A stretch of 63,695 nt of DNA, filler included, from Basidiobolus ranarum (GCA_040143965.1; 45 parts of 45 records of this genome joined end to end with filler, not necessarily neighbours in it), one strand, 5' to 3'; shown: positions 4,078 through 55,217, counted from the first letter of the whole stretch. Translations and numbers: made by a program. The notes: generated by a model not told the origin, from the sequence alone.

Positions 4078-4167
4078 CCCTAACAGAAATTTGAGGATTG
4101 TTATCGTAGGAAAACCGTCACAATTTTAATCCATTTGGGGTTGACCGTTTACTTACCGTCATAAAAA
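4078..4167 (+). mobile_element. CCCTA transposon end A (CpG-intact copy) inserted in copia integrase
   Basis: CCCTAACAGAAATTTGAGGATTG begins right after LLGYC; near-identical to 50868. Confidence 0.92.
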
Positions 4168-4267
4168 NNNNNNNNNNNNNNNNNNNNNNNNNNNNNNNNN
4201 NNNNNNNNNNNTTAATTAATTAANNNNNNNNNNNNNNNNNNNNNNNNNNNNNNNNNNNNNNNNNNNN

Positions 4268-5164
4268 TGTAGCTGCCGTCACTTGCTTTGCTCAGGAGTG
4301 ATTCAACATTTTGGAAACTGAGTAGAATCTTGCCCAATTTCACCTGGATTTGAGCCAATCAGAGAAAAACCAAAAACCAGGTGTTACTCTGAAGGTTCTT
4401 GACTCATTTCATGTGGCTCATCCTGGGTATTTGCAAGCAAATGGCAATTGGGCTTGTATAGACCTATTCATGAAACATCTCAAAAATGTACACAATTTTC
4501 AACTTGAAAAAGAAAGAAAAGTAGTACAACAAGTACTGGGAGAGCAGGTAGTTAGGAAGCCCAAGGGAAAAGCAAAGGAGCCAGTGAGTTTATGCTCTAC
4601 TGTGCCACTTACCAATTTCTTCACACTATTATAAAGATCAGCATTTCCAGAGTCAGATATACTGGCAAAAAAGCTTAATTTCAACATGGAACCAGGTATA
4701 CCATTTGGAAGAGTGCTAAACTTGGAAGTTTATGTAACATCTAGTGCCTCTTAACAAGCTAAAATACCAGCATATAGAACTCATGGCTCTCCAACCTCAA
4801 CTGGCACTTTTCATAGCGTTGAAATTGGCCCCAAAGTTAAAGTCAAGCAAAAACCACACTTACACCATAATGAACCCTCAGTAACACTACAAAGTTGTAT
4901 GAAAATAGTGAAAGTGCTTGAGGAGTATTTTCAAAAGTATGAAGAGAAAAATGCAGTGCAAGTATGCAGAAAGTGGCTTCAGAAGAAGAACATTCAACTT
5001 GACATTTGGTCCGGTGTTGACCATGCAGATATCTGGGAAGAACTAATACAGAGTAGCACAATATTGCAGGGTATCTGCCTGATAGATGGAAGAATGATGG
5101 TTCAGCAACATTAATACAATGGTGGGCTTTGATGGAGATATTGATATAAACTTGTGTTGGATAT
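4268..5164 (+). pseudogene. CCCTA transposon ORF2 fragment (unknown function)
   Basis: KVLDSFHVAHPGYLQANGNW...KPKGKAKEPVSL; homologous to 44002, 45418 and 52490. Confidence 0.8.
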
Positions 5165-5589
5165 TATTGGGAAAATATGGGCTGTTTGGAGGAGCTTTAG
5201 AAAAGTTGAGTTGTGAACAGCTTTGTGAGACAATTGTTTATTGTCCAGAAATAAAGCATTTATACTTTTTGCTGGAAATACTGAAAACTAACACTGGGGT
5301 TGTGTTCAGAATATCTGTGGGAGTAAAATGAGCTATCTTTGGGGCAATTTGGACAAGTTTGAAATTTCAAATATGGAATTGTTAATTCACACATTATTCA
5401 TATATATATATAATATATGTTCCAATTTTCAGCTAAGTGATATTTGACTAAGTAATGTTAACTAACTTATATGTGATATATGAAATAGTTTGGTGTATAA
5501 GGATAGAGATAATAAATATGATAAAGACAATAAACTTCAACACTCCCACTCAACTAAATATTCATATATCTTAATCCTAACTTAAATCT
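5165..5589 (-). mobile_element. Copia family 1 3' LTR (5165-5542, TG...TA) plus PPT
   Basis: ~378-bp repeat; TTAGTTGAGTGGGAG precedes TGTTGAAG on minus. Confidence 0.88.
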
Positions 5590-5689
5590 NNNNNNNNNNN
5601 NNNNNNNNNNNNNNNNNNNNNNNNNNNNNNNNNTTAATTAATTAANNNNNNNNNNNNNNNNNNNNNNNNNNNNNNNNNNNNNNNNNNNN

Positions 5690-6646
5690 GTTACAATAAA
5701 TCTTTGGCTTTACTAGCTCCTTCTTTTGGAAATAGTTTTCTGGTGATTTTCCCTTGAATACAGCTTTCACATTTTGTTATATCTGAGGGCTTAAGATCCA
5801 TCCCTGTACATAGGCTATTTTTATATAATAGTTTCAGTTATCAGTGCAATATCCAGGTAATATAGATTCCCAATTCTTGTTCTAGTTACTACTATTAAGT
5901 CCTTTGATTTGTATATGGTTGCTTTTCCTTGGCCAAATTTGACATCATAATGTTTCTTTTCAATTGCTCCAATTGAAAACAGATTTGTTGTAAATGATGA
6001 AATATATCAGACATCTTCCAAGGTTACCATTACACTTTTGGTTTTACTTATTTGTAAGTCAAGTGTGACCTTTCCCATTCCATATGCTACCGGTTTGTTT
6101 CTTCCAGCTACCATGATGTCCATAGGTTCTATTTCCTTATAGTCATGCATTATGCTTCTATTGTGACACACATGATCACTTGCACCAGAATCTAGAATCC
6201 ATACATTAGCAGAGTCATTTCTGGATTTAGAGGGTGCCATAAGTACATAGTGGTCATTTCCTCTTTTGGTGGTGTTATATGCTTCCTTTTTCTTTGAAAC
6301 CCATTTCATCTTTGATCTGCAGTAACATTCTATATGTCCCAGTTTTCCACATTTGTAACATATAATAGTGCTCCTTTCTGGTTGGCTATTTTGAGAATAA
6401 AATGCTTGTATAATTTTTGTTTCATCTGCATGCTGACTTTTGTCTTTCCTTTTAAATTCTTCTTGACATAGACAAGAGATCAGATAATGCTGAGTAAGCC
6501 TATCCCTAATTGCTTCCAAAGTGAGTACAAGGGCTGAATATGATTCAGGGAGACCATTGACTATGCTAAGAATTATATCCATTTCAGGTACTTCATAATT
6601 CACTGATTCCAGTTGTTGGGCAAGTTTCTGGACACCATTTACATAT
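5690..6646 (-). pseudogene. Ty1/copia gag-protease remnant
   Basis: NGLPESY, zinc knuckle CYKCGKLGHIECYC, WILDSGASDH; same family as 34088. Confidence 0.92.
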
Positions 6647-7011
6647 CCCTAACAAAAATAAAATTGATTTGATCTGGATTGCATCCACCCTCCAAAATAG
6701 CAAAACCATCAGAGAACCATCACAATATTATAGGTTTGCATTCTGCCAGGGATTTTGATGGTGTGACAGCAATTTCTTGACGGTATCTTAATGGTATTCA
6801 TACATGTTAAAATATTGATCCTCAAATTTGGCATGCGTTACTCAATATTTAGCAATTTTTGCAAAAATATAATTTTCAAATGGCAAATTATTGGGTTTAC
6901 TCCTGGAGGAATTCAAGGTAATATGCATGCCTTTATTTAGATATCTTAGGCTTTGTATTCCAGCCATAATGACAATCAAAAAACACAAGAAGCTTGTTGT
7001 GTTTAGTCTCT
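6647..7011 (-). mobile_element. CCCTA transposon end B with transposase 3' end
   Basis: CCCTAACAAAAATAAAATTGATTTG interrupts the copia gag. Confidence 0.9.
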
Positions 7012-7111
7012 NNNNNNNNNNNNNNNNNNNNNNNNNNNNNNNNNNNNNNNNNNNNTTAATTAATTAANNNNNNNNNNNNNNNNNNNNNNNNNNNNNNNNN
7101 NNNNNNNNNNN

Positions 7112-8937: not shown

Positions 8938-9490
8938 CCCTAACAAAAATAAAATCAATTTGATCCAGATTTGATTCACCATCCTGAATTGCAAAACCAT
9001 TAGAGAACCATCACAATATTGGTGGCTTGCATTCTGCCAGGGATTTTGATGGTGTGATGGTGGCTTCTTGCTGGTATTTTGATGGTATTCATACATGTTA
9101 AAATATTGATCCTCATATTTAGCATGTCATTTAATTTCCAGCAATTTTTGCAAAAATCTAATTTTCAAATGGCAAATTGCTAGGTTTACTGCTGTTAGAA
9201 TTTGAGTTAACAAGCATGCCTTTTTTAGATATTTTTAGCTTTCTATTCCAACCATAATGAGAATCAAAAAATACAAGCATCTCATTGTGTTTAGTCTCTA
9301 CTTATGCACATACTTGACTGATCAGACATAACTCAGCAACATCAATATGCTTTACTAGCAAACTAATGGTGGAAAAGTTACTAATCATCTGAAATTTTGA
9401 ATAGCACTGACACTTGGCAAATAGCTGACTCTTGTTACCATTCACAATGAGAATAAGCACTGGGATTTTAGCAAATTTCCATAAAGAAAT
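8938..9490 (-). mobile_element. CCCTA transposon end B plus transposase C-terminus
   Basis: CCCTAACAAAAAT at 8938; interrupted by LTR1 at 9491. Confidence 0.9.
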
Positions 9491-10890: not shown

Positions 10891-11275
10891 CCCTACTGAA
10901 ATTTGAGGATTGTTATCATAGGAAAACCATCACAATTTTAATCCACTTTGGATTCACCATTTACTTACCATCAATTTTTCAGTTTCAGGAGTGAAATTTC
11001 AAGATCTTGCAAAATAGTTGAGCATGATTGGCTACAATCTCAGAGAACTATGGACCAACACAAGTGCAAAAAACGTAACTCATATTTTAAACAATTACCA
11101 CTTGAATACTAATTTGTGACCTTCAAAATCCCTAGTCTCTTTGATACATTCTCTTGAATATCTATATAGAGTTCTTCATACCCAAGGTTTAGCTCATACC
11201 CAACACAAGTTTGTATCAATATCTCCATCAAAGCCCACCATTGTATTAATGTTGCTGAATCAACATTCTTCCAGC
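10891..11275 (+). mobile_element. CCCTA transposon end A and ORF2 3' region (diverged)
   Basis: CCCTACTGAAATTTGAGGATTG; continues as the reverse complement of ~44760-45175. Confidence 0.85.
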
Positions 11276-11375: not shown

Positions 11376-11594
11376 TTGATTGATGCTACTTCTTACACAT
11401 CTGATAAATTGATTGATGCTTCATCATTACTTCAGTTGGTTTCCAGCATGTTAATGCCTTCCAATGTGGATAGTGGATTGCAAGACTGCTCATTGTTAAG
11501 TCCTCTGTTTTGATGTTTTTTTTCTTTTTGTGCCAGCAGGTGTTGGCTTAGAAGCCAATTTTGATTTAGATTTTGAATGCTTTTTGAATGGCAT
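11376..11594 (-). pseudogene. Putative N-terminus of CCCTA ORF2 (MPFKKHSKSKSKLASKPTPAGTKRKK)
   Basis: ATG at 11594 on minus, divergent from the transposase; homologous to ORF 33540-33767. Confidence 0.6.
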
Positions 11595-11805
11595 TGAAAT
11601 TTTCAGATGGTAAACTTGGTGTAATGAAGTTGCTTAGAAACAGCTATAATAAACCAAAATTGCCATCCATTGCTGGAAATATCTTGTAAATCCCCTGATG
11701 ACTTATCTGTGACACCATCTCAGAATCAGCTGATGATATTGATGGGCTATACCTGAAATACCACCCATACTTTTGAGGTGTTCTTTTTCATACAATATTC
11801 TTCTC
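11595..11805. promoter_or_regulatory. Candidate bidirectional promoter between ORF2 and transposase
   Basis: ~210-bp spacer between divergent ATGs; conserved at ~28510-28697, 33312-33520 and 54304-54496. Confidence 0.45.
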
Positions 11806-12696
11806 ATGCCACAATACAAACATTTAAAGAAGCCCTGATATTATTGTCACAAATTCTTGTACTATGAAAGCTGGAGGCTTCATAGAAAAAATAATCATAA
11901 GCATGGCCCTTGTACAAAGCCACCAGCTGCACAAAGACTGGTGTACAACAACAGTATAAAGTACACTAAATTGACTTTACTTTTGCCCATTGAGTCCATT
12001 GACTGTACTTTGTCTCAAAGTTTTGGTAACACTGCCAAAAGTCAAGATACCTTGGAGTTACCACAGTTATATGACCAGAATCATGCAGCTCAAAATGCAA
12101 CTTTGGTTGAACTCATAAGTCCAGAAAACTTTGAGGACTTGCTGCTAGATGTTGAACTTGGTTATACCTGTACCAATGGTAGTATATCAGAAGTCGAAGA
12201 AGAAGACAACAGGTTTGTTACAGACTCTTTGTTACTGGTGAACATTAGTCCACTCATAACACTTACTGTAAAGAAAGCAGCTTTGATTATTGAAGAGTGG
12301 AGAGTTCAATCCAATCTTAGCAGGCAGGTGTTTATTGGTTGCCTTACACTTTTACCACAGTTGATTAGCAATTGTTGTTTGCCACAGACCGGGTACAAGT
12401 GGAAAACTCTTGTCAATTGTATGACTTATAATTCTTCAGTAATTAAACTACCTTCATGTCCAAATGGTTGTTTGGCTTTCACCAGTGATCTGAAAGACCT
12501 GAAATCATGTACTGTTTGCACACAATTGGCAATCACTAAATCAGATAAATATTGCTCATATTTGGCTTACATCCCCTTGATTCCCCATCTTGAAGGATGG
12601 ACGAAATCACCCAAATATCGATCATTCCTCCAAAACTAAAGGACTTGCCATCAAGCTGATGGTATTACTGATATACTTGATGGATATCACTACCAG
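11806..12696 (+). pseudogene. CACTA/EnSpm-like transposase, N-terminal part
   Basis: MPQYKH..., acidic stretch, CPNGCLAF...CTVC zinc motif, YIPLIPHL, TDILDGYHY. Confidence 0.85.
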
Positions 12697-18479: not shown

Positions 18480-19799
18480 AGTCTTTGCATTTGAATAAAT
18501 GCCTAGATGAGGGGATATTGAAGGGAGTCTTGGTAAAATATGATGGTATATTGACATTGTCAAATATTTTCCCAATCAATTAAAACTTTGATCCTATCTC
18601 AAATGGCTCATTCATATTGAATTTTCTGCTATATAGCTGAGTAAGTAGAATTGGAATGTTGCTGAATAGTAAGTGCATAGTGTTTAATGGGAAGCTCTGG
18701 CTCCAGCTGATTCCCCTTAGCAATCTAAACTTAGGCTTATGGCTAATACCAAGTTTGATGTTAGACTGAATATTTGGTGAATTGATATCAATGAGCATGC
18801 TGAAATCTGACCAGGCTCTTGACAGTAAAATCATGAAGTTTAGTTTTGTATTTGGATAGTAGTAATGTGTATGCCCAATAGAGTAGACTCCATTGATTTG
18901 ACAAAATCTACAGCAAGATAGTGCATTGTGCCTGCAAAAACCTCCAAGTTTACTGATGGCAAGAGTGTTGCCAATAAATACAATGATATTAGCTTTAATA
19001 AAGTATTCACCCATCTAAACCCCATTAGATAGCCATTCAAATTCAGCAATCAAAGGCTTCAAGAAGCTATCTATAAACACTGATGATTTAGATCCAGATA
19101 TGATGGATAGTATCACAATATTATGACTCTTATACCATTCAAAAGGATGAAGATTTAAGTTAACTGAAATTATTGGCCAGCAAGCCTTTCCAATGGTATA
19201 TTTGTTTAGTGAGAAACCATCCAGAGCCAATGTAAATGCATGATAGTATATATTCTCAAAGAAACCTTGACTTTCAGATTCTGGTAGTTATATCCATCAA
19301 GTATTTTGGTAATACCATAAGCTTTATGGTGAGTACTTTGGTATTGGTTCAATGATCAATATTTGGGTGATTTCATCAAAGCTTTAAGACCAGGAATCAA
19401 CAGTAGGTAAGCCAAATATAAACAGTATTTAACTGATTCAGTGATTGCCAACTGTGTGCAAACAGTACATGACTTCAGGTTTTTCAGATCACTGGTGAAA
19501 GCCAAACAACCACTTGGACACAAAGGTAGTTTATTACTGAAGGATTATAAGTCATAACATTGACAATTGCATTCCACTTGTACCAGGTCTGTAGCAAGCA
19601 ACAGTTGCAATCAACTGTGGAAAAGTGTAAGAAAACCAATAAACATCTGGTTGCTAAGATTGGATTGAACTCTCCACTCCTCAATAATCAAAGCTGCTTC
19701 CTTTACTGTAAGTGGCATGAGTTGAGTAGTTCTTGCAAATAACAAAGTGTCTGTAACAAAACCATCATCTTCTCCTTCAACTTCTGATATACTACCATC
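18480..19799 (-). pseudogene. CACTA/EnSpm-like transposase core (Transposase_21-type)
   Basis: LALDGFSL, CWPIISVNLNL, IDSFLKPLIAEF, GHNA-like/CCRFC, MHLLFSNI; many stops. Confidence 0.9.
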
Positions 19800-22739: not shown

Positions 22740-23240
22740 CTCATTGTGAATGGTAACAAGAGTCAGCTATTTGCCAAGTGTCAGTGCTATTCAAAATTTG
22801 AGATGTTTAGCAATTTTTCATCATTAGTTTGCTGGTAAATCATATTGTTGCTGTTGAGTTATATCTGATCAGCCATGTATGTGCATATATAGAGAGTAAA
22901 CACAACAAGATTCTTGTATGTTTGATTCTCATTATGGCTGGAATACAATGCCTAAAATATCTAAATAAAGGCATGCATATTAATCCAAATTTCTACAGCA
23001 GTAAACCTAGTGATTTGCCATTTGAAGATTATATTTTGCAAATGTTGCTTGATATTAATAATGCATGCCAAATATGAGGATCACTATTTTAACATGTATG
23101 AAGACTGTCATAATATCATCAAGAAACCCCCATCACACCATCAAAATCCCTGGCAGAATGCAAGCCACCAATATTGTGATGATTTTGCAATTTAGAAGGG
23201 TCAATCTGATCCGGATCATGTTGATTTTATTTTGTTAGGG
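22740..23240 (+). mobile_element. Transposase C-terminus and CCCTA end B
   Basis: Ends TTTTGTTAGGG at 23240. Confidence 0.9.
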
Positions 23241-23245
23241 TACAG

Positions 23246-23572: not shown

Positions 23573-23574
23573 TA

Positions 23575-24020: not shown

Positions 24021-24161
24021 TTAGCAGTGACACATCCTAGCCTTCTGAATTCCTCCCCANNNNNNNNNNNNNNNNNNNNNNNNNNNNNNNNNNNNNNNNN
24101 NNNTTAATTAATTAANNNNNNNNNNNNNNNNNNNNNNNNNNNNNNNNNNNNNNNNNNNNTG

Positions 24162-26148: not shown

Positions 26149-26897
26149 CCCTAACAAAAATAAAAACAATTTGATCCAGATTGGATTCACCGCCTGAAAT
26201 AGCAAAACTATCAGAGAACCATCACAATATTGTTGGCTTGCATTCTGCCAGGGATTTTGATGGTGTGATGGCAGTTTCTTTACAGTATCTTCATGGTATT
26301 GACACATGTTAAAATATTGATCCTCAAATTTGGCATGCATTATTCAATATCCAGCAACTTTTGCAAAAATAAAATTTTTGAATAGCAAATTACGAGGTTT
26401 ACTGCTGTAGGAATTCAAATTAATATGCATGCCTTTATTTTGATATTTTAAGCTTTGTATTCTAGCCATAATGAGAATCAAAAAATACAAGAATCTTGTT
26501 GAGTTTAGTCTCTACATATGCACGTATTTGACTGATTAGACATAACTCAACAACATCAATATGCTTTATCAGCAAACTAACAGTGGATAAATTGCTAAAC
26601 ATCTGAAATTTTGAATAGCACTGACACTTGGCAAATAGCTGACTCTTGTTACCATTCACAATGAGAATAAGCTCTTGGATTTTGGCAAATTTACATAAAG
26701 AATTCAGTTAATATATCCCCCACTTGCAGTCAACAAATGTCCTGCCACAAGTAGATGCGTCATTGCTTAAATAGATTACCCCATGGTTAAAACAATCATA
26801 CTGCGTATCTCCATCTATCTCACCAAGAAGTCTGTCTTGCAGCTTTCCTAAAAATACCATCAGATTATCACACAAGCAAATTAGTCCAATTATAAAG
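26149..26897 (-). mobile_element. CCCTA end B with the longest transposase C-terminal segment
   Basis: CCCTAACAAAAAT at 26149; minus frame FAKIQELILIVNGNKSQLFAKCQCY. Confidence 0.9.
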
Positions 26898-28489: not shown

Positions 28490-29140
28490 TTATTCAGGTG
28501 GTTAGCTTGGTGTGAAGAAATTGCTTAGAGACAACTTATAATAAGTCCAAGTTGCCATACATCACCAGAAATATCTTGCAAATCCCCTGATGACTTATCT
28601 GTGACACCTACCTAGAATCAGCTGATGCTATTGACAGGGTATAACTAAATTACCATCATTACAAATTGGGTGTTCTTTCTTCTACAATATCCTTTTCAAT
28701 TGCTCCTATATGGCACATATACTTTTGATACCTTGTCTTAAATTATTGATAAAATCACTCAAGTATAGATCATTGTTCCAGTATCAATGTACTCATCATA
28801 AAGCTGATGATATTACTAAAATGCTTGATGAATATCACTACCAGAATCCCAAAAGTCAAGATTTCTTTGAGAATACATATGATCATGCATTTGCTTTGGC
28901 TCTGGATTGTTTCTTATTAACAAATATACTAGTAGAAAGGCTTGCTGGCCAATAATTTTAATTTGCCAAAATCTTCCTCCTTCAAAATGGTATAGGAGTC
29001 ATAATATTTTGATACTATGCATCATATCTGGACCTATATCACTGGTATTTATAGATAGCTTCCTGGAGCCATTAATTGTGAAATTTGAGTAGTTATCCAA
29101 TATGGTTCAGAAGGAGGAATACTTATTTCAAGCTAATTCT
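28490..29140 (+). pseudogene. Internally deleted CCCTA transposase copy
   Basis: Spacer region joined directly to the YCSY-like region; FALALDCF, IDSFLEPLI. Confidence 0.8.
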
Positions 29141-30635: not shown

Positions 30636-31152
30636 GCAGAAACTTAAGGATTGCTATTTTAAGAAAACCATCACAATGTTGATCCATTTAGGATTGATCA
30701 TTTACTTATTGTCATAAAATTGTCAAGTTAGGTTTGATTTTAATCAATTTTTTCAGTTTCAGGAGTGAAATTTCAAGATCTTGCAAAATGGTTGCACATG
30801 ATTGGCTACAATCTCAGAGAACTATGGATCAGCACATGTGTGAAAAAGATAACTCAAATTTCCCAGATATCTGCACAGTCAACACCAGACTGAATGTCAA
30901 GTTGAATGCTCCTCTTCTGAGACCACTTTCTGTATACTTGCATTATGATTTTCTCTTCATACTTTTGAAAATACTCCTCAAGCACTCTGACTATTTTTGT
31001 ACATCCTTGTAGTGTGACACTACTGAGGGTACTTTGTGGTGTTTGTGTGGCTCTTTGCTTGCCTTTAAGTTTGGGGCTAATTCAATATTTTGAAAAGTAC
31101 CATTTGAGGTTGGAGAGCTGTGAGTTTTATTTGCTGGTGTTATGGCTTGTTG
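30636..31152 (-). mobile_element. Degenerate CCCTA end A with deleted ORF2 3' part
   Basis: Homology to 55021 and to the reverse complement of ~53150-53440. Confidence 0.75.
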
Positions 31153-31456: not shown

Positions 31457-32570
31457 CCCTAACAAAAATGAAATTGATTTGATCCAGATTGGATCCACCC
31501 TCTGAAATAGCAAAACCATCAGAGAACCATCACAATATTGGTGGCTTGCATTCTGCCAGGGATTTTGATGGTGTGATGTCAGTCTCTGGATGGTATCTCA
31601 ACAGTATTCACACATGCTAAAATATCGATCCTCAAATTTGAAACATGTTATTGAATATTCAGCAATTTTTGCAAATATCTAATTTTTGAATGGCAAATTA
31701 CTGGGTTTACTGTTGTAGGAATTCAAATTAATATGGATGCCTTTATTTAAATATCTTAGGCTTTTCATTCCAGCCACAATGAGAATCAAAAAATACAAGA
31801 ATCTTGTTGTGTTTAGTCTCTATATATGCACATACTTGACTGATTAGACATAACTCAACAACATGAATATGCTTTACCAGCAAACTAAAGGTAGAAAAAT
31901 TGCTAAACATCTGCAATTTTGAATAGCACTGGCACTTGGCAAATAGCTGACTCTTGATACTGTTCACAATGAGAATAAGCCCTTGGATTTTGGCAAATTT
32001 CTATCAAGGATTCAGCTAATATATCCCCAACTTGCAGTCAACAAATGCATAAACCTGTAATAAAGTTTTTTGTATCCAATTGCAAAATCTTTGCACAGTC
32101 ACTATATCTGGCTGAGATCTGCCAATGTGAGTTGATGCCATAAGAATATATTAACAATATTGACAAACAACTTCCAATGTTGCCAATACTTATCAGGCAG
32201 AAATCCTTTCAAAATTCCACATAAATATATGCAATTCCAATACTTGCAGTCTTTGAACTTGAATGAATGCCAAGATGAATGGATATTGATGGGAGTCCTG
32301 GTAAAATATGATGGTATCTTGACGTTTTCAAGCATTTTTGCAATTCATTCAAACTTTGATCCTATATCAAATGGCTCATTCATATTAAATTTTCCACTAT
32401 ATAGCTGAGTAAGTAGTATTGGAATGTTTTTGAATAGTAAGTGCATAGTGCCTAATGGCAAGCTCTGGCTCCAGCTGATCCCCTTTAGCAATATAATCTT
32501 AGGCTTATGGCTAATACCAAGTTTGATATTAGACTGACTATTTGGTGAATTGATATCAGTGATCATGTTG
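31457..32570 (-). mobile_element. CCCTA end B contiguous with transposase core (internal deletion near 32050)
   Basis: TIR at 31457, C-terminus, then LPDKYWQHWKLFVNI and MHLLFKNI on the same strand; links the transposase to end B. Confidence 0.9.
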
Positions 32571-32670: not shown

Positions 32671-33987
32671 TTAATTACTGAAGGATTATAAGTCATATGA
32701 TTGACAAGGGTTTTCCACTTGTACCAGGTTTGTGGCAAGCAACAGTAGCCAATCAGCTGTGGTAAAAGTGTAAGAAAACCAACAAGCATCTGGTTGCTAA
32801 GATTGGATTGAACTCTCCACTCCTCAATAATCAAAGCTGCTTCCTTTACTGTAAGTATTATGAGTGGACCAATGTTTGCTAATAACAAAGAGTCCGTAAC
32901 AAAACCATTGTCTTCTTCTTCAACTTCTGATATACTACCATCAGAACTGGAATAACCAAGGTCAACATCTAGCAGCAAGTCCTCAAAGTTGTCTGGACTT
33001 ACTGGTTTGGCCAAAGTTGCATTTTGATCTACATCATTCTGGTCATATAACTGTGGTAACTCCACGGTATCTTGACTTTTGGCAGTGTTATCAAAACTTT
33101 GAGGCAAACTACAGTCAGTGGACTCAATAGGCAGAACTAAAGTTGATTTAGTGCACTTATTACTGTCATTATACACCAGGCTTTATGGAGCTGGTGGCTT
33201 TGTACAGTGACCATGCTTGTGATTATTTTTTCTATGAAGCCCCTGGCTTTCATAGCACAAGAATATACAACAACAATAGGAGGGCTTCTGTAAACATTTG
33301 TGTTGTGGCATGAGAAGGATATTATAGAAAAAAGAAAACCTCCCACATAAGGGTGGTATTTGAGGCATTGCCCATCAATATCATCAGTTGATTCTGATAT
33401 GGTGTCACAGATGAGTCATCAGGGTATTTACAAGATATTTCTGGTCATGGATGGAATTTTTGGTTTATTTTACGCTATTTTTAAGCAATTTCATTACACC
33501 AAGTTTACCATCTGAAAATATTCAAAATCTAAGTCAAAATTGGCTTCCAAGCCAAAGCCTGCTGGTACAAAAGTAAAAAAACCAGCAAGAACAGGGGACT
33601 TGATTGATGAGCAGTGTAACGGTCCACTAACCACCTTGGAAGGCGTTAACATGCCAGAAACTAAATCAAGTAATGATGAAGCATTGAGCAACTTACCAGA
33701 TGTGTTCTTTTCCAGCGATAGTGCAAGTGAAGAGATTCAATCCCCCATTGACATCGTAAATCAATAGTTGAGCAAAGTTCAACTGAAATGCCGTCAAGAC
33801 CATCAACCTCCAAAATGGCTACTTGGCCCACTATTGAACAACCCTCCATAGAAAATTTGGATAGAATTATTACAATAAGAGAATTGCAGGCAGAACACCA
33901 TAATGATTTGTATGCAATCATAAGTAAAAACTATGAAGTTGCTATACAGGCCATGACAAGCAATAATGCCACAATATTGCAATTAAT
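32671..33987. mobile_element. CCCTA centre: transposase N-terminus (minus, ATG 33311) and ORF2 N-terminus (plus, from ~33520)
   Basis: MPQHKCLQKP on minus; ASKPKPAGTKVKK...RELQAEHHNDL on plus. Confidence 0.8.
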
Positions 33988-41169: not shown

Positions 41170-42485
41170 AGGTTTCTTTGAGAACACATATGATCATGCA
41201 CTTGCATTGGCTCTGGATGGTTTCTCACTAAACAATTATTTATTGGAAAGGCTTGCTGGCCAATAGCTTTAATTAAGCTGAATCTTCCTCCTTCTGAAGG
41301 GTATAGGAGTCAAAATATTTTCATACTATCCACCATATCTGCATCTAAATCACCAGTGCTTGAAGATAGCTTCTTGGAGCCTTTGATTGAGGAATTTGAA
41401 CATTTATCTAATGGGCTACAGATGGGTAAATATTTCCTTAAAGCTAACATCATTGTATGAATTGGTGACACTCCTGGCATCAGTAAGCTTAGAGGTTTTT
41501 TAGGCACAATGCACACTCTGGCTGTAGATTTTGTCACATCAATGAAGTTAACCCTATCAAGTACATGTATTACTACTGTCCAAAGACATCACTAAGCTCC
41601 ATGATTAATCTGTAAAGTGCCTGGTAAGATTTCAACATGATCACAGATATCAACTCACCATATAGCAAGCCTAACAGCAAACTTGGTATTGGCCTTAAGC
41701 CTAAGAAATTATTGCTAAAGGGGATCAGCTGGAGCCAGAGCATCACAGGAGGTACTATGCTTTACTATTCAACAACATTCCAATACAACTTACTGAGCTA
41801 TATAGTGGAAAATTTGATATGAATGAGCCATTTGAGTTAGGATCACTGTTTTAATCAATTGGGAAAATGCTTGAAAACATCAAGATACCATCATATTTTA
41901 CCAGGACTCCTATCAATATCCATTCATCTATGCATTTCTTTGGGTGCAAAGACTGGAAGTATTGGATTTGTATATATTATGGTGAATCTTGAAAAGACTT
42001 CTGACTGATAAGTATTGGCAACATTGGGAGTTGTTTGTTGATATTGTAAATATCTTCTTATGGCATCAACCCACATTGGCAGATCACAGTCAGATACAGC
42101 AACCAGGCAAAGATTTTGCAATTGGACAGGAATAATTCTGTTACAAATTTGAAGAAGATAGAATGAATCTATGCTGGTAATCAATACATTGCTGGCAGCA
42201 TTTTTCGCAATGCTTAGAGATTGTAGGCCCTTGCTATACATTCTGGGAGTTCCAAATGGAGCATACCGGTGGTGAAATGATGCTCCATGTGAAATTGTCA
42301 GTATTACCTTATGTTAAGCAGATTAACATTATATCAGCAAAGTCAGTGATGATATAATGCAATGGGTTAAGGAGACTCCAGAGTATATTAACCTTCCAAC
42401 AAAGGGCTCTTTTCAACAAGCTCACAGGTTTGTGCTTTGTTAGGGCTCATTCACAGCAACAGACCCCAAGCCATGGACACAGAGT
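41170..42485 (+). pseudogene. CACTA-like transposase with complete catalytic region
   Basis: LALDGF, IGDTPGISKL, YWQHW, FWEFQMEH. Confidence 0.88.
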
Positions 42486-44001: not shown

Positions 44002-45175
44002 ACATGCTGCTCCCTCTGTCCATTCTCATATGGGATTTCAGTCAATCCCACACCATACGTATGAACGTCACCATGACAATCTAGCAGAGCAGAATATGTG
44101 TTGAACCATTAAGCCTACACAATGACCCAAAATTGCTTGGGCACATGAAAGTAGAAATCTGATAGGCAAACCAGCAAACCACAAGACTCTGAATGTCAGA
44201 GCTGCCATCACTTGCTCTGATGATGAGTGGTTTAACATTATGGGAACTGTGCGGAATCTTGCCCAAAATCACCTGGATTTGAGTCAATTGTGGAAAAACC
44301 AAACACCAGGCATTACTCTGAAGGTTCTTGACTTATTTCATGTTGCTTATCCTGGGTTTTTGCAAGCAAATGGCAATTGTGCTAGTATAGGCCTATTCTT
44401 GAAACATCTCAAAAATGTAAGCAATTATTGACTTGTAAATCAAAGAAAAGCAGCTAAAGACATACTGAAGGAGCAGGAAGTTAGTAAACCCAAGGGAAAA
44501 GCAAAGGAGCCAGTGAGCTTGGGCTCTACTGTCCCACTTACTAAATTCTTCACATCATTGCAAAGATCTGCATTTCCAGAGTCAGATATACCGGCAAAAA
44601 AGCTTAATTTCACCCTGGAACTGGGTACACCAGTTGGAAGAGTGCTAAATTTGGAAGTTATCCAATACAGCTTGATATTCAGTCTGGTGTTGACCATGCA
44701 GATATCTGGGAAGAACTTAATACTGAGTGGCACAATATTGCAAGGTATCTGCCAGATAGCTGGAAGAATGTTGATTCAGCAACGTTAATATAATGGTGGG
44801 CTTTGATGTAGATATTGACACAAACTTGTGTTAGGTATGAGCTAAACCTTGGGTATGAAGAACTCAATAAAAATATTCAGGAGAATATATCAAAGAGACT
44901 AAGGATTTTGAAGGTGAAAAATTAGCATTCAAGTGGTAATTGTGTAAAATTTGAGTTATGTTTTGCACATGTGTTGATCCATAGTTCTCTGAGATTGTAG
45001 CCAATCATATGGTACTATTTTGCAAGATTTTGAAATTTCACTCCTGAAACTGAAAAAATTGATTAAAATCAAATCTAACTTGACAATTTTATGATGGTAA
45101 GTAGACAGTCAACCCCAAATGGATTAAAATTGTGATGGTTTTCCTACAATAACAATCCTCAAATTTCTGTTAGGG
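44002..45175 (+). mobile_element. CCCTA ORF2 contiguous with end A, inserted into LTR1 (45176-45313)
   Basis: ORF2 motifs followed by ...TTTCTGTTAGGG at 45175; links ORF2 to end A. Confidence 0.9.
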
Positions 45176-45417
45176 AACCCCAGCGTTAGTTTTCTGTATT
45201 TCCATCAAAATGTATAAATGCTTAATTTCTGGACAATAAATAATTATCTCACAATAGCTATTCACAACTCCACTTTTCTGAAGTTCCTTCAAGTAGCTCA
45301 TATTTTCCCAATAGGTTNNNNNNNNNNNNNNNNNNNNNNNNNNNNNNNNNNNNNNNNNNNNTTAATTAATTAANNNNNNNNNNNNNNNNNNNNNNNNNNN
45401 NNNNNNNNNNNNNNNNN

Positions 45418-46107
45418 TTTCAACACTTTGGAAAGGACCAGTTGAGTTTGGAGAGCCATGAGTTTGATTTGCTGGGGGTTTGGCTTGTTCAGAGGTGCCA
45501 GGTGTTGGATAAACTTCTGAATTAAGCACTCTTCCCACTTGTGTACCTGGATCCATGGTGAAATTAAGCTTTTTTGCCAGTATATCTGACTTTGGAAATG
45601 CATATCATTGTAATAGTGTAAAGAATTTGGTAAGTGGGAGAGTAGAGCCTAAACTCACTGGCTCCTTTGCTTTTCCCTTGGATTTACTAACTTCCTGCTC
45701 CCTGAGTACTTCTTTAGCTGCTTTTCTTTCTTTTCCCAGTCTATAATTGCATACATTTTTGAGATGTTTCATGAATAGACCTGTACCAGCCCAATTGCCA
45801 TTTGCTTGCAAAAACTCAGGATAAGCCACATGAAATAAGTCAAGAACCTTCAGAGAAACACCTGGTTTTTGGTTTTTCTGCAATTGGCCCAAATCCAGGT
45901 GATTTTGGGAAAGATTCCACATACTTTCCAAAATGTTAAACCACTCATCATTTGAGCAAGTGATGGCAGCTCTGACTTTGAGAATCTTTTGGTTTGCCAA
46001 CTTTCCTATAAGATTTCTACTTTCATGTGTCCAAGCAATTTCAGGTTGTTGCATAGGCTTAATGGTCCAACACATATTCTGCTCTGCTAGATTGTCATGG
46101 TGATATT
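45418..46107 (-). pseudogene. CCCTA ORF2, best-preserved segment
   Basis: 156-aa ORF 45605-46075 IAWTHESRNLIGKL...EWFNILE...FHVAYPEFLQANGNWAG. Confidence 0.8.
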
Positions 46108-46832: not shown

Positions 46833-47012
46833 TTTTAGCCAATCATTTGCAACTATTTTGCAAGATCTTGAAATTTCACTCCTGAAACTGAAAAAATTGA
46901 TTAAAATCAAATCTAACTTGATGATTTTATGATGGTAAGTAAATGGTCAACCCCAAATGGATTAAATTGTGATGGTTTTCCTACAATAACAATCCTCAAA
47001 TTTCTGTTAGGG
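46833..47012 (-). mobile_element. CCCTA end A
   Basis: Ends TTTCTGTTAGGG. Confidence 0.9.
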
Positions 47013-48247: not shown

Positions 48248-49561
48248 CAGTCTAACATCAAACTTGCTATTAGCTGTAAGCCTAAGATTATATTGCTAAA
48301 GGGGATCAGCTGGTGCCAGAGCTTCTCATTAGGCATGATGCACTTACTATTCCTCAACATTCTGATACTACTTACTCAGCTATTTAGTGGAAAATTCAAT
48401 ATGAATGAGCCATTTGAGATAGGATCAAAGTTTGAATTAATTGGGATAATGTTTGATAACATCAAGATACCATCATATTTTACCAGGACTCCCATCAATA
48501 TCCACTCATATACGCATTTATTCAAATGCAATGACTGCAAGTATTGGATTTGTATATATTCAAGTGGAATTTTTAATAGATATCTGCCTGAAAAGTATCG
48601 GCAACATTGGGAGTTTTTTGTCAATATTGTTAATATATTCCTATGGTATCAACTCATATTGGCAGATCTCAGGCAGATACAGCAACTGTGCAAAGATTTT
48701 GAAATTGGATATGAAAAACATAATTACAGGTTTAAAGAAGATAGACTGAATCTATGCCAGTATTCAATACATTCCCTGCTGCATCTTTCACATTGCTTAG
48801 TGATTATAGGCCCATGCTATATATTCTGCAAGTTCCCACTGGCATGCACCTGTGATGAAATAATCTTCCTAATGAAATTGTCAGTAGTATCATATGCTAA
48901 TCTGATTAATAATGCCCTAACATATATAAAATTGATTTGATCTGGATTGGATACACCCTCCAAAATAGCAAAACCATGAGAGAACCATCACAATATTGCT
49001 GGCTTGCATTCTGCCAGGGATTATGATGGTGTGACAATGATTTCTTGATGGTCTCTTGATGGTATTCATACATGTTAAAATATTGATCCTCAAATTTGGC
49101 ATGCTTTATACAATATCCAACCATTTTTGCAAAAATATAATTTTTGAATGGCAAATTACTGGGTTTACTGCTGTAGGAATTTGAAATAATATGCATGACT
49201 TTATTTAGATATTTTAGGCTTTTTATTCCAGCCATAATGAGAATCAAAAAATACAAAAATCTCATTGTGTTTAGTCTCTACAGATGCATATGTTTGACTG
49301 ATTAAACATAACTCAACAACATCAATATGCTTTACCAGAAAATTAATGGTGAAAAATTGCTAAACATCCAAATTTTGAATAGAACCAACACTTGACAAAT
49401 AGCTGATTCATATTATGATTCACAATGAGGATAAGCTCTTGGATTTTGGCAAATTTCCGTAAAGAATTTAGCCAATATATCCCCAACTTACAGTCAACAA
49501 ATGTCCTGCCACAAGTAGATGTGTCATTGCTTGAATAGATTACCCCATGGCCAAAACAATA
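48248..49561. mobile_element. Transposase (plus, 48248-48914) interrupted by end B of another copy (48915-49561)
   Basis: 215-aa ORF with SIHSLLHL...GPCYIFCKFP; CCCTAACA at 48915. Confidence 0.88.
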
Positions 49562-49661: not shown

Positions 49662-50975
49662 CTGGCATGGATTCAGTCTATCTTCCTAAAACCTGTAATA
49701 AACTTTTTCATATCCAATTACAAAATCTTTGCACAGTTGCTGTATCTGCCTGAGATCAGCCAATGTGTGTTGATGCCATAAGAATGTATTCACAATATCC
49801 ACAAACAACTTCCAATGTTGCCAATACTTATCAGGCAGAAATCTTTTCAAGATTCCACTTGAATATAAATAAATTTAATACTTCCAGTCTTTGCATTTGA
49901 ATAGATACCTAGATGAGTGGGTAGTGATGGGAGTCATGGTAGAATATGATGGTATCTTGATGTTTTCAAGCATTTTCCAAACTGATTCAAACTTTGCTCC
50001 TATCTCAAATGGCTTGTTCATATTGAATTTTCCACTATATGAGCTAAGTAAGAAGTATTGGAATGTTGTAGAATAGCAAGTGCATAGTGCCTAATGGGAA
50101 GCTCTGGCTCTGGCTGATCACCTTTAGCAATATAATCATAGGCTTACCGCTAATACCAAGTTTGATGTTAGGCTGACCATTTGATGAATTGATATCAGTG
50201 ATCATATTGAAATCTAACTAGGCCCTTGATGATAAAATCATGGAGTTCAGTTTTGTATTTGGATAGTAGTAATGTGTATGCTTGATTGAGTAGACTCCAT
50301 TGCTTTGACAAAATCTACAGCAAGATGGTGCATTGTGCCCCCAAAAACCTCCAGGTTTACTGATGGCAGGAGTGTCACCAATACATACAATGATGTTAGC
50401 TTTAATAAAACATTCACCCATCTGAACCGCATTAGATATCATTCAAATTTCACCATCAAAGGCTCCATGAAGTTATCTATAAGTTTTGGTGATTTAGGTC
50501 CAGATATGATGGATAGTATCAAAATATTATGACTATTATACCATTCAGAAGGAGGAAGATTCAAGTTAATCAAAATTACTGGCCAGCAAGCCTTTCCAAT
50601 GGTATATTTGTTTAGCAAGAAACCATGTGCAGCCAATGCAAATGCAATATCATACAGGTTCTCAAATAAACCATGACTTTTCAGATTCTGGTAGTGATGT
50701 CAATCAAGTAAATAGATAAAACCATCAGCTTGATAGTGAGTACTCTGGTATTGGATTAATGAGCTATATTTGGGTGATTTCATCAAGACTCTAAGACAGG
50801 GAATCAGCAGTATCCAAGCCAAATATGAGCAATATTTACCTGATTCATTGATTGACAATTGTGTATACCCTAACAGAAATTTGAGGATTGTTATCGTAGG
50901 AAAACCGTCACAATTTTAATCCATTTGGGATTGACCGTTTACTTACCGTCATAAAATCGTCAAGTTAGATTTGAT
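49662..50975. mobile_element. Transposase (minus) interrupted by a CpG-intact end A at 50868
   Basis: IGDTPAISK, GHNAPSCCRFC; TIR at 50868. Confidence 0.9.
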
Positions 50976-51075: not shown

Positions 51076-52389
51076 TAATGGGGGATAATACTAATAGTGT
51101 GATATGATTGGCTAGAAAATATGGGTAAGTCAAATAAGGATAATAAAATAGAAATTGTGCAATAGTAATGATATGAGCTCGGAGTGTAAATAAGTCAACC
51201 TGCCAGTGGGTAGCAATGCTACCCCACTACAATGGTTTTCCTACAATAACAATCCTCAAATTTCTGTTAGGGCAAAGTTGTATTTCTTTAGCTAAAAATC
51301 CCAAGTTTCATGCTAGAAGTAAGCACATTGACATTCAACATCACTTTGTTAGGAAAGCTATTGAGAATAAGCATGTCCAACTACAGTACTGTTCAACTGA
51401 GGACATGATTGCTGACATCGTTACCAAACCATTATCCAGGCCAAAATTTGAAAAATCAAGAATTAAGTTAGGATTAAGATATATGAATACTTAGTTGAGT
51501 GGGAGTGTTGAAGTTTATTGTCATTATCATATTTGTTATCTCTATCTTTATGCACCTAACTATTGTTAAAGTGTATGGGAGCCTGTTGGAAGTGCTTTGG
51601 AGAATCAGAGAATTGGTGGTATTCACTTATTGATTTATTGAGTAGAACGTTGACATTTATAGTTTTGCCAAGATGTAAATAACTAGTGTGTAGAATATGT
51701 TAAGGAAGAACCCAGGAACATTCATGCAAATTTTGGGGCTTCTAGCACAAGTTTGAAAAATCTATATATCTGAGAACTTCTAAGTTGGTAAAAATTATCT
51801 AAGTAAATTCCAATTGAGAATAATTGGTAATATCTTAGTGAGTTATAAGATAACTAAGTACTAAACTATATATGACTATATAGGTGTTTAGGCAAAGCTA
51901 ATTTTTACACTCTCCCTTAACTAAACAGTCATAGAGACTAATCCTAATAGAGGTCTAAATTTCTCAAATTTCTGTCCATCTATTGGTTTGGTTAGTATAT
52001 CAGCAATCATATCTTCTGTAGAACAATAAGTCAAGTCAATAAACTTATTCTCTATAGTCTCTCTAATAAACTGATGCTTAATATCTCTATGTTTGCTTCT
52101 ATTATGAAATATGGGATTTTTAGCTAATTTGATACAACTTTGATATCTTGAAATATTGTAGTTGGTGAATTTTGAGAATAACCCAAATCTGTCAAGAGTT
52201 TTCTTAACCATATTGCTTCTTTTGTTGCTTCACAGCCAGCCGTGTATTCAGCTTCTGTTGTTGAAAGTGCTACAGTAGGTTGTTTCTTTGAATTGCAAGA
52301 AATAGCTCCATTAGAGCAAAGATACAAGTATCCTGTTGTAGATCTCCTGTATTCAATATTTCTTCCCCAATTTACATCTGAATATCCCA
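51076..52389. mobile_element. Nest: LTR5 in end A (51232-51272), in copia-1 RNase H/PPT/LTR1 (51273-51563), with copia-2 3' LTR (51564-51909) and RNase H (minus)
   Basis: KHIDIQHHFVR/ADIVTKPL; PPTs; ALSTTEAEY. Confidence 0.88.
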
Positions 52390-52489
52390 NNNNNNNNNNN
52401 NNNNNNNNNNNNNNNNNNNNNNNNNNNNNNNNNTTAATTAATTAANNNNNNNNNNNNNNNNNNNNNNNNNNNNNNNNNNNNNNNNNNNN

Positions 52490-53722
52490 CATCCATTCTC
52501 ATATGGGATTTTAGTCAATCCCACACCATACATATGAACGTCACCGTGACAATCTAGCAGAGCAGAATATGTGTTGGACTGTTAAGCCTACACAACAACC
52601 CAAAATTGCTTGAGCACATGAAAGTAGAAATCTCAAAGGAAAACTGGCAAACTAAAAGCCTTGAATGTCAGAGCTGCTGTCACTTGCGCTGTTGGTGGGT
52701 GGTCTAACATCTTGGAAACTGTGCAGAATCTTGCCCAAAATCACCAGGATTTCAGCAATTGTGGAAAACCATAAACCAGGTGTTACTCTGACGGTTCTTG
52801 ACTTATTTCATGTGGCTTTCTTTGGTTTTTGCAAGCAAATGGCAATTGGGCTAGTATAAGCCCATTCATGAAAAATTTCAAAAATGGACACATTGATAGA
52901 CTTGGAAAAGAAAAAAAAGAAGCTAACAAAGTACTCAAGTAGCAGGAAGTTAGTTAACCCAAGTGAAATGCAAAGGACCCATGAATTTAGGCTCTACTGG
53001 CCCATTTACCAAATTCTTCACACTATTATAAAGAACTGCATTTCCAGAGTCAGATATAATGGCAAAAAGGCTTAATTTTGCCATGGAACCATGTACACCA
53101 GTTGGAAGAGTGCTAAGTTCCAAAGTTTATCCAACACATGGCACCTTTCAACAAGCCAAAACACCAGCAAATAAAACTCATGGCTCTCCAACCTCAACTG
53201 GTACTTTTCAAAGTATTGAAATCGCCCCAGACTTAAAGGCAAGCAAAAAGCCACACAAACACTGCAAAGCACCCTCAGTAGTGTCACACTACAAGGATGT
53301 ACAAAAAAGTCAAAGTGTTTGAGGAGTATTTTCAAAAGTATGAAGGGAAAAACACATTGCAAATATGCAGAGAGTGGCTTTGGAAGAAGAACATTCAACT
53401 TGACATTTAGTCTGGTGTTCACTGTGCAGATATCTGGGAAGAATTTAATACAGAGTGGTACAATATTGCCGGGTATCTGCCAGATAGCTGGAAAAATGTT
53501 GATTCAGCAATGTTAATACAAGGGTGGGCTTTGATGGAGATTTTGATACAAACTTGTGTTGGGTATGAGCTAAACCTTGGGTATGAAGAACACTATAAAA
53601 TATTCTGCTGAATATATCAAAGAAACTTGGGATTTCAAAGGTGATAAATTAGCATTCAAGTGGTAAATGTGTAAAATTTGTGTTACATTTTTTGCACATG
53701 TGTTGATCCATAGTGTTCTTAG
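52490..53722 (+). pseudogene. CCCTA ORF2 long fragment, interrupted by LTR1 at 53723
   Basis: Collinear with 4268-5164 and 44002-45000. Confidence 0.82.
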
Positions 53723-53903
53723 TATTGGGAAAATATGGGCTGTTTGGAGGAACTTTAGAAAAGTGGAGTTGTGAATAGCTTTATGAGATAATTGTTTATT
53801 GTCNNNNNNNNNNNNNNNNNNNNNNNNNNNNNNNNNNNNNNNNNNNNTTAATTAATTAANNNNNNNNNNNNNNNNNNNNNNNNNNNNNNNNNNNNNNNNN
53901 NNN

Positions 53904-54496
53904 TCTTCTTCTTCAACTTCTGATATACTACCATCAGTACTGGAATAACCAAGGTCAACATCTAGCAGCAAGTCCTAAAAGTTGTCCGGACTTACTGGTT
54001 TAACCAAAGTTGCATTTTGACCTATATCATTCTGGTCATATAACTGTGGTAACTCCACGGTATCCTGACTTGTAGCAGTGTCACCAAAACTTTGAGGCAA
54101 ACTACAGTAAGTGGACTCAATAGGCAAAACTAAAGTTGATTTAGTGCACTTATTACTGTTGTTATACACCAGGCTTTGTGCAGCTCAATGCTTTGTACAG
54201 TGACCGTGCTTGTGATTATTTTTTTATGAAGCCTCTCACTTTCATAGCACAAGAATTTGCAACTATGATATCAGGGCTACTTTAAACATTTGTGTTGCGG
54301 CATGACAAGGATATTGTGGAAAAAAGAACACCTCCCACATAAGGGTGGTATTTTAGGTATAGCTAATCAATATCATCAGCTGATTCTCAGATGGTATCAC
54401 AGATGAGTCATCAGGGGATTTTCAAGATATTTCTGGTAATGAATGGCAATTTTGGTTTAGTATAAGCTGTTTCTAAGCAGTTTCATTACACCAAGT
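53904..54496 (-). pseudogene. Transposase N-terminus and spacer
   Basis: Paralogue of ~32910-33510; ATG at 54303. Confidence 0.82.
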
Positions 54497-55020
54497 TTAT
54501 TTTTTTTCTCCATTCTTGAGGTACAGAGATACTGATAGAAACTGGGTGTATGTTAGCATCAAGGGAGTCCTCAAATTTGTTGTCAGAGTGTATTTCACCA
54601 GGTCTTGGTCCCATTCTTGATAGTCAATCTGCAACAACATTGGTTTTTCCTGGTATGTGTACCACTTCAAAGTCAGCATCTTGAGACAAGCCATCCACCG
54701 ATTGTTAGCATTATCTGGTAGGTCTGGTTTGTTGATCATTGGAATAAGTGGTTTTACATCTGTTTCAAGTATGAGGTGAGTCATGTAGATTTGGGCCTTT
54801 AGTATCTCAATCATCTATACTGCTCCAAGTAGTTCTCTCTTGATCCTGGAATATCTCTGCTCCCTAGGGTTGAATAAGCAGATTTCATATCTGCTGGCAT
54901 GTCAGATGCCTGCTTCATCATTCTGGCCTAAAAGAGCACCTGCCCCAATAGGACTTGAGTCAACTGTGAGTATTGGGTGTCTTCTGGCATCTGCATAGTC
55001 TAGTGGCTTGAGAATTCAAT
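54497..55020 (-). pseudogene. Ty3/gypsy RNase H (second lineage)
   Basis: ILTVDSSPIGAGALLGQ, EQRYSRIKRELLG, ETDVKPL, NRW. Confidence 0.8.
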
Positions 55021-55217
55021 CCCTAACAGAAATTTGAGGATTGTCATCATAGGAAAACCATCACAATTTTAATCCATTTGGGGTTGACCGTTTACTTACC
55101 ATCATTAAAACGTCAAGTTAGATTTGATTTTAATCAATTTTTTCAGTTTCAGGAGTGAAATTTCAAGATCTCGCAAAATAGTTGCAAATGATTGGCTAAA
55201 ATCTCAGAGAACTATGG
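55021..55217 (+). mobile_element. CCCTA end A
   Basis: CCCTAACAGAAATTTGAGG. Confidence 0.92.

Follow-up and report, generated by a model that had tools for sequence, protein, structure and literature searches.

Transposon family of the window

The window analysed here is a 63,695-base stretch of DNA from the fungus Basidiobolus ranarum (GCA_040143965.1) that contains many pieces of one abundant DNA transposon family. It consists of 45 separate contigs of 1312-1323 bp, which are arranged by length, with N44-TTAATTAATTAA-N44 linkers (e.g. 1324-1423) between them. Because unrelated contigs are concatenated, their order and the distances between them have no genomic meaning, apparent features across contig borders are artefacts, and no long-range structure can be read. 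A first-pass annotation had placed a CACTA-superfamily transposon at 4078..55217; this interval is not the span of an element, only the range over which the pieces occur on separate contigs. The same annotation held that the family dominates the repeat sample, and the count agrees, with 19,349 of 59,295 bases (32.6%) and 24 of the 45 contigs belonging to it. Comparison of the contigs with one another gave 215 pairwise matches, and the family was chained from these into three blocks: a transposase, an arm that ends in terminus A and contains a second open reading frame (ORF2), and an arm that ends in terminus B. Termini A and B differ from each other but probably belong, as its two ends, to a single family of cut-and-paste DNA transposons in the CACTA/EnSpm-Mirage-Chapaev (CMC) supergroup.

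Terminal sequences

Two classes of terminus with a 13-bp imperfect inverted repeat had been listed at 14 sites, and all 14 are present. The eight A ends lie at 1563 (-), 4078 (+), 10891 (+), 45175 (-), 47012 (-), 50868 (+), 51272 (-), and 55021 (+), and the six B ends at 6647 (+), 8938 (+), 23240 (-), 26149 (+), 31457 (+), and 48915 (+). All begin with CCCTA, not CACTA; those at 10891, 23240, and 48915 are degenerate, with an indel or two mismatches. Two extra A ends, old and degenerate, were found on contig 22 near 29952 (-) and 30631 (+), which gives a total of ten A against six B ends. The terminal consensus is CCCTAACA(G/A)AAAT. The A terminus reads CCCTAACAGAAAT and the B terminus ATTTTTGTTAGGG, with the first 8 bases identical and 12 of the first 13 in common. 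With at most one mismatch, the 13-mer CCCTAACARAAAT has 11 matches where 0.37 would be expected, a number that none of 100 shuffles reached. Among the 16 ends there are only two classes of CCCTAACA end and no third. CCCTAAC occurs at 17 sites, four of which are not A or B ends; these four are internal to genes or repeats, and none coincides with a repeat boundary. The exact terminal strings (9-mers) occur in 398 papers; for the 15 of these that were listed, titles and abstracts gave no transposon context, and the strings seemed to be primers or unrelated sequence.

Inside the ends, sequence is conserved for up to 1174 bp (A) and 749 bp (B), and outside them it is unrelated from copy to copy. 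Five ends (4078, 6647, 8938, 48915, and 50868) have an uninterrupted paralogue, in comparison with which the insertion boundary falls at, or 1-3 bases from, the first C of CCCTAAC. Homology with the paralogues breaks there, and these five ends are true insertion boundaries, as in the earlier description of sharp cuts into other elements; the unrelated flanks described with them are confirmed as well. The end at 45175 lies within another repeat family, here called R3. The family also nests into itself, since the B end at 48915 and the A end at 50868 are each inside the transposase gene of another copy. The last three bases of the flank are ATT, TAC, TTT, GTT, TTT, ATA, TTG, and AAT at the A ends and TAT, AAG, GTA, AAC, ATC, and ATG at the B ends. 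These flanks have no constant target, with TTAA at 0 of 14 ends and TA at 2 of 14.

A second, 12-bp motif, AACC(G/A)TCACAAT (AACCRTCACAAT), has 15 matches in the window against 1.0 expected. Nine A arms and six B arms have one copy each, and every copy faces inwards, at position +36 in A and +69 in B. CC(A/G)TCA hexamers number 2-4 in the first 80-145 bp of the ends, compared with a window-wide frequency of 1.7 per kb. In the youngest A ends, the 12-bp motif still has its CpG (AACCGTCACAAT, at 4113 and 50903), and older copies have CA in its place, as would result from the deamination of methylated CpG. When the first 88 bp are compared, nine A copies (without the 41-bp end on contig 37) have a mean pairwise identity of 87.8%, and the six B copies one of 86.4%.

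The DNA of the window has about 33% G+C and is strongly depleted of CpG, with an observed/expected ratio of 0.15 against 1.14 for GpC over the whole window. Transposon copies often differ by CG versus TG or CA (examples at 4113 and 50903). Such differences fit what is expected from methylation-driven repeat decay.

Transposase

The internal region encodes a DDE transposase of the Transposase_21 or CMC type. The 115 window ORFs of at least 75 amino acids (aa) were scanned against Pfam, and four of them, all in the family chain, scored 29.3-39.4 bits and thus above the curated cut-off of 28.6 bits for Transposase_21 (PF02992). These ORFs are at 19018-19287 (-), 41194-41457 (+), 50442-50699 (-), and 60992-61798 (-). 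The last is a 269-aa frame on contig 44 that matches P0001, a public protein of 698 aa, with an expectation value (E) of 4e-111 and 79% identity; besides P0001, it matches only two plant-type CACTA transposases at about 1e-5. P0001 itself matches PF02992 with 60.3 bits (E 1.9e-16) and PF06869 (DUF1258) with 3.1e-10. The Transposase_21 assignment of the first-pass annotation, for which a profile check against PF02992 had been proposed, is thus confirmed. In the Atlas, the clusters closest to the transposase consist of Transposase_21 proteins from arthropods and basidiomycetes. The plant-type accessory domains PF13963 and PF13960, as carried by P0002, were found neither in P0001 nor in the 115 window ORFs, and the Pfam scan of these ORFs gave no TET/JBP domain.

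P0001 has the motifs D260 (LALDGF), D344 (GDTPA), C363-x2-C366 (CRFC), H585-x3-H589 (HSLLH), and E609 (FPME). Together they form the D, D, C(2)C, H(3)H, E signature that PMC12730594 and PMC4592977 give for the CMC supergroup. Residues 1-684 of P0001 map colinearly and without introns over contigs 9/24/39, 44, 14, 36, 30, 35, and 23. Residue 1 is at 11983 (contig 9), 33134 (contig 24), and 54127 (contig 39), and residue 684 is at 42485 (contig 30).

The beginning of the gene is present in three pieces. At 11376..12696 (+), 607 bp of upstream sequence precede residues 1-239. At 32671..33987 (-), residues 1-155 (33134-32673) adjoin an upstream region that runs for 853 bp (33135-33987) without reaching a terminus. 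The third piece, 53904..54499 (-), holds residues 1-74 and upstream sequence, with homology ending at 54499. Pfam Transposase_21 matches mark the pieces at 60971..62283 (-) with residues 29-392, 18480..19799 (-) with residues 65-506, 49662..50864 (-) with residues 181-581, and 41170..42485 (+) with residues 245-684 and frameshifts; the third of these is broken by the A end at 50868. Residues 411-633 are found at 48248..48909 (+), broken by the B end at 48915, and residues 400-572 at 32051..32570 (-), adjoining a B arm on the same contig. The copy at 28493..29137 (+) on contig 21 has an internal deletion in the upstream/transposase region.

The window copies carry the same catalytic motifs piecewise, each with some mutated. 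LALDGF is located on contigs 14 and 44 (LAVDGF in the open frame of the latter), GDTPA on contig 36, where CRFC is also kept, and FWEFQME on contig 30. Mutated forms include GNTLA for GDTPA on contig 14, which alters the second D, LAAHGF on contig 36, which alters the first, and FPLA in place of the E motif on contig 35, which keeps HSLLH. It had been claimed that contig 31457-32570 links the B end to a transposase with DG, GDTPA, and FxME motifs. The contig (31253-32570) does join a B arm to the transposase, but only to residues 400-572, which include none of these motifs; the motifs are on contigs 14, 44, 36, and 30. Every copy in the window is broken by stops, frameshifts, or mutated catalytic residues and is dead; the copies are 75-99% alike, and many of their differences are at CpG sites.

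The CCC...GGG termini could also suggest an element outside the CMC supergroup, either a piggyBac-like one or one of a TA-specific lineage (ESTA, CNEST). The ends of piggyBac elements start with CCCTAGAAAG. This explanation is hardly credible, as TTAA flanks none of the 14 ends and TA only two, the transposase matches Transposase_21, and no DDE_Tnp_1_7 or piggyBac domain occurs in the 115 ORFs. For piggyBac in particular, the flanks and the Pfam result amount to a refutation.

A arm and ORF2

The A arm extends over about 1.4 kb. Its longest copy that reaches the terminus, 44002..45175 (-) on contig 32, measures 1174 bp, lacks about 255 bp that are present on contigs 4 and 38, and is inserted into R3 (45176-45313). 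This contig had been reported to link the A end to ORF2, and it does so, with ORF2 at 44009-44785 (+) and the terminus at 45175. ORF2 is read outward, towards the A terminus and away from the transposase.

The remaining A ends are shorter. The end at 1424..1563 (-) is the terminal 140 bp, with its terminus at 1563, cut by the contig start; that at 4078..4167 (+) lies in a Copia integrase fragment and has the CpG form of the 12-bp motif. The arm at 10891..11275 (+) has 385 bp and a degenerate terminus, CCCTACTGAAAT. Further ends are at 46833..47012 (-), 180 bp; 50868..50975 (+), nested in the transposase gene of another copy; 51232..51272 (-), with only 41 bp left; and 55021..55217 (+), 197 bp. 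The two ends that were new relative to the first list are an old degenerate end at 29856..29952 (-) and an old arm at 30631..31152 (+), with ~5 bases missing from its start and a deletion in its interior. Interior parts of the A arm are found at 4271..5164 (+), with ORF2 in the plus sense and cut at 5165 by R3; at 45418..46103 (-), with the longest open piece of ORF2 (45608-46153, 182 aa); and at 52490..53727 (+), where ORF2, again in the plus sense, has several stops and frameshifts and is cut at 53723 by R3.

Seven relatives of ORF2 were found among 1.84 billion representatives, and all except P0005 are fragments. P0005, the best intact relative, has 299 aa and 43% identity over 142 residues (E 1e-30). 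A search of proteins of 320-2000 aa gave no full-length relative. No Pfam family matches ORF2, nor does any Atlas entry at 0.9 or more or any structure at a template modelling (TM) score of at least 0.5. An AlphaFold2 model of P0005 from a 9-row alignment reached a mean predicted local distance difference test (pLDDT) value of 58.6 and a predicted TM score (pTM) of 0.30, with only the helix 16-78 confident. Differences by codon position are flat and give no measure of coding constraint, at 75/60/61 for ORF2, 29/31/32 for the B-arm frame described below, and 47/49/53 even for the transposase, for which two of the four comparisons aligned almost nothing. We regard ORF2 as a real protein, though an orphan one.

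B arm

The B arm is at least 749 bp long, and all six B ends have one common interior for 365-650 bp. The longest copy is 26149..26897 (+) on contig 19. The arm at 6647..7011 (+) lies in a Copia gag/pol fragment, that at 8938..9488 (+) is cut at 9491 by R3, and that at 22740..23240 (-) has a terminus with a 1-bp deletion. The arm at 31457..32047 (+) on contig 23 is joined after about 590 bp directly to transposase residue 572 and represents a deletion derivative. The last, 48915..49560 (+), is nested in the transposase gene of another copy and has two mismatches in its terminus. A reverse-strand frame kept in all copies (26465-26897 (-) on contig 19) ends in ...FFDSHYGWNxKxKISK and a stop about 260 bp from the B terminus. 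A search with 26465-26707 of this frame gave no relative among proteins of 143-2000 aa and no Pfam family. The frame could be the last transposase exon or a third small gene.

Organization of the element

The most likely layout of the element starts with the A terminus and an A arm of about 1.4 kb with ORF2, followed by a gap, at least 0.85 kb of upstream sequence, an intronless transposase of about 700 aa, a second gap, and a B arm of 0.75 kb or more that closes with the B terminus. In this arrangement the two genes are probably divergent, with the transposase reading towards B and ORF2 towards A. The summed pieces give a minimum length of about 5.1 kb, with 1.43 kb for the A arm, 0.85 kb upstream, 2.05 kb for residues 1-684, and 0.75 kb for the B arm, plus the two unbridged gaps. 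The length of more than 5 kb proposed earlier is in line with this sum.

Two junctions connect the arms with the transposase. On contig 23, position ~592 of the B arm is joined cleanly and without filler to transposase residue 572, and the gene reads towards B. The second junction is in P0009, a predicted public protein of 100 aa that was found via ORF2. P0009 starts with HDFRFLRAPVKTKQPFGHE and then continues directly into ORF2 (AKEVLKE...). Its start is the antisense translation of a transposase region (HDFR.FR..VK.KQPFGHE) found at the same family position on contigs 9, 14, and 44, and the source of P0009 thus seems, from its sequence, to be a deletion derivative in a related copy. Because P0009 joins ORF2 to antisense transposase, ORF2 and the A arm would be on the 5' side of the transposase, as the junction on contig 23 requires.

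Both junctions might be artefacts, with a short-read assembly chimera on contig 23 and a gene-prediction chimera in P0009, in which case the internal layout would be lost, and the ends would remain those of a CMC-type family. Through the collapse of repeat copies, chimeras are likely among contigs of about 1.3 kb from a genome this rich in repeats, and P0009 is a 100-aa fragment; on the other hand, the junction on contig 23 is clean and free of filler, its orientation agrees independently with that of P0009, and deletion derivatives exist elsewhere in the family (contigs 21, 32, and 22). We consider such a double artefact very improbable.

A and B could also be the ends of two sister families with a common transposase type and terminus, e.g. 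an autonomous B-bearing family and a more recently active A-bearing one. The second end of each family would then have been missed by the small sample, or would be of the same type as the first (A...A and B...B). Two families would need up to four classes of end, and the occurrence of only two among 16 ends, with no third CCCTAACA class, therefore favours one element. Every far-reaching A end enters the same interior (contigs 32, 8, and 22). Ends of the same type would have to be long identical terminal inverted repeats (TIRs), since the six B ends share their interior for hundreds of bases, and the two junctions agree with each other in that, relative to one transposase family, A is 5' and B is 3'. 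The numbers of copies (ten A and six B) and their mean divergence are similar and also speak for a single element. Further points in its favour are the terminus that A and B have in common, the 12-bp motif in the arms of both, and the 853 bp upstream of the transposase on contig 24, in which no terminus is reached. Sister families would be consistent with the age structure of the ends, as six A ends form a young group that is 93-99% identical, against 92% for the best B pair, and with the lack of a contig that has both ends while each transposase link depends on one junction. Taken together, two sister families are unlikely.

The reading of A and B as the two ends of one element has several observations against it, the young group of A ends being one. 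None of the 45 contigs contains a copy with both ends, and none in the window joins an A arm to the transposase region. The window also has no insertion with both flanks and no pair of contigs flanking one insertion from which a target site duplication (TSD) could be read. Each of the links, A to transposase and B to transposase, has a single junction. That on contig 23 (32047/32050) is a deletion breakpoint relative to contigs 19 and 35, because these continue the B arm differently, and it could be a chimera. That of P0009 comes from outside the window and has only 52-58% identity to the antisense transposase over 23-29 residues. Past the TIR, A and B resemble each other only in the 12-bp motif; the local score is 27 against 14.9 +/- 2.4 in shuffles, of which 4 of 2000 reach 27, and a few unrelated pieces of the window score 26-28. 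A frame on contig 24 (33752-33985 (+)), which as the N-terminus of ORF2 would have connected the A arm with the transposase inside the window, found no support in this role. With BLASTP it matched P0005 at E 0.56, in an unrelated stretch, and did not match P0008, and a profile of the two N-termini with phmmer over 1353 window ORFs gave E 8.9.

Proposed transposition mechanism

For a single element with A and B as its ends, the DDE transposase would recognise the 13-bp imperfect inverted repeat and probably also the inward AACC(G/A)TCACAAT motif near both ends. Ordinary cut-and-paste transposition would follow, in which the element is excised and re-inserted with a short TSD of variable sequence. 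By analogy with the animal CCC-type elements, this TSD is predicted to be 2 bp (PMC1636069), or else 3 bp. Copies with internal deletions (contigs 21, 22, 23, and 32, and the source of P0009) would be the usual by-product of this process and could be moved in trans. Purely by analogy with TnpA, ORF2 may be an accessory DNA-binding protein that binds or bridges the ends.

A more specific hypothesis can be formulated, and it is a long shot. The family could be a distinct fungal CMC lineage that has ends beginning with a single telomere-repeat-complement unit (CCCTAA...TTAGGG), a motif that originally contained a CpG (ACCGTCA), and an ORF2 protein whose long N-terminal helix reads this motif in a methylation-sensitive manner. 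If true, this would be an independent invention of an epigenetic switch of the maize Spm TnpA type, in a genome where CpG methylation keeps repeats silent.

Other genes and repeats of the window

The sole clear host gene seen, and within the sequence the chief indication of a fungal source, is a fungal-type chitin synthase. Its open intronless frame of 440 aa at 7113-8432 (-) fills a whole contig and matches Chitin_synth_2 (1.8e-86) and a CHS4-like domain (4e-18) in Pfam. Most of the remaining sample consists of Copia fragments (gag, Pol_BBD, rve, and RVT_2) and Gypsy fragments (RVT_1, RNase H, and integrase zinc domain). These Copia and Gypsy fragments are at 2847-3957, 6010-6648, 19939-21218, 25580-25942, 26998-28017, 35782-36819, 55669-56630, and 58196-58528. 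A Harbinger-type family is common to contigs 17, 33, and 41, at 23768-24058 (-), 57315-57614 (+), and 46541-46732, and its DDE_Tnp_4 matches are weak and below the cut-off. Ends related to this family adjoin the B terminus at 23241 and also occur at 16842, 56822, and 59674. Two tandem repeats were found. The first, at 37598-38056, has four copies of a 114 bp unit with 76% matches and is also present on contigs 11 and 16; the second, at 59722-60078, has 2.8 copies of a 127 bp unit.

R3 is another abundant repeat of the window. It has a sharp start, TATTGGGAAAATATGGGC..., at eight sites (5165, 9491, 17167 (-), 28236, 29181, 45313 (-), 53723, and 58911), with unrelated flanks and copies that are 88-100% alike. 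R3 is inserted into the A arm (5165 and 53723) and the B arm (9491) of the transposon, and at 45175 it has in turn received an A insertion.

Comparison with known systems

By its transposase, which is of the Transposase_21 type and has the catalytic signature residues, the element belongs to the CMC supergroup. Most CMC lineages have 5'-CA..TG-3' termini in common (PMC12730594). All 14 listed ends start with CCCTA and depart from this pattern, which counts against the assignment. The CACTA superfamily named in the first-pass annotation therefore holds for the CMC supergroup and not for CACTA in the narrow plant sense: the element has no CACTA or CACTG termini, and its ORF2 is unrelated to any known family and reads in the opposite direction to the transposase.

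The maize En/Spm element, the plant CACTA prototype, likewise has a short TIR and unlike subterminal regions in which short motifs are repeated, encodes two proteins, and often gives rise to derivatives with internal deletions. It differs in its CACTA ends, its 3-bp TSD, and its TnpA and TnpD, which come from one transcription unit on one strand. Its subterminal motif arrays are also far richer than the one shared 12-bp motif per arm and the 2-4 hexamers found here.

CMC/EnSpm elements have expanded in several fungal groups (PMC5751038), so an element of this kind in a fungus is not new. CACTA is among the TIR superfamilies of rust genomes (PMC12210899), and the EnSpm elements of rusts (Pucciniales) have 5'-CAC..GTG-3' ends, a 3-bp TSD, and in some cases a TET/JBP gene (Kojima 2025, PMC12730594), whereas the ends here are CCC..GGG. 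Sly1-1 of Neurospora crassa, also a CMC element, likewise combines a transposase with an adjacent divergent gene of unknown function, and at 11.5 kb and low copy number it is unlike the abundant family described here (PMC4592977). The basidiomycete Cryptococcus neoformans has the CMC elements CNIRT6 and CNEST, which are about 7 kb in length and whose short TIRs have 24-33 bp; CNIRT6 has CACTG ends and a 3-bp TSD, CNEST has CACGG ends and a TA TSD, and both are active, in contrast to the dead copies of the window (PMC12139950). CNEST groups with animal, Mirage, and Chapaev-like transposases (PMC12139950). In the layout proposed here, as in Sly1-1, a transposase would be paired divergently with a second gene, here an orphan. 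For the genome itself, a family that makes up about one third of the sample gains defined ends and gene content, which are needed for the repeat library.

The element fits best into the CCC-type (TRC) group, with which it has in common a Transposase_21 transposase and a TIR that starts with CCC. The TRC elements of Schistosoma mansoni (SmTRC1), Tribolium, and Aedes have Transposase_21 transposases, CCC TIRs, lengths of 5-9 kb, and a 2-bp TSD (DeMarco et al. 2006, PMC1636069). The TIR of the Tribolium element starts with CCCTAGTAGCACC, which has CCCTA in common with the element of B. ranarum and differs after it (PMC1636069). The passages of that paper drawn on here describe no counterpart of ORF2, and they list fungal relatives of the TRC transposase whose TIRs are uncharacterised there (PMC1636069). 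CCC-type termini, so far described for animal Transposase_21 elements, would thus extend to a fungal element.

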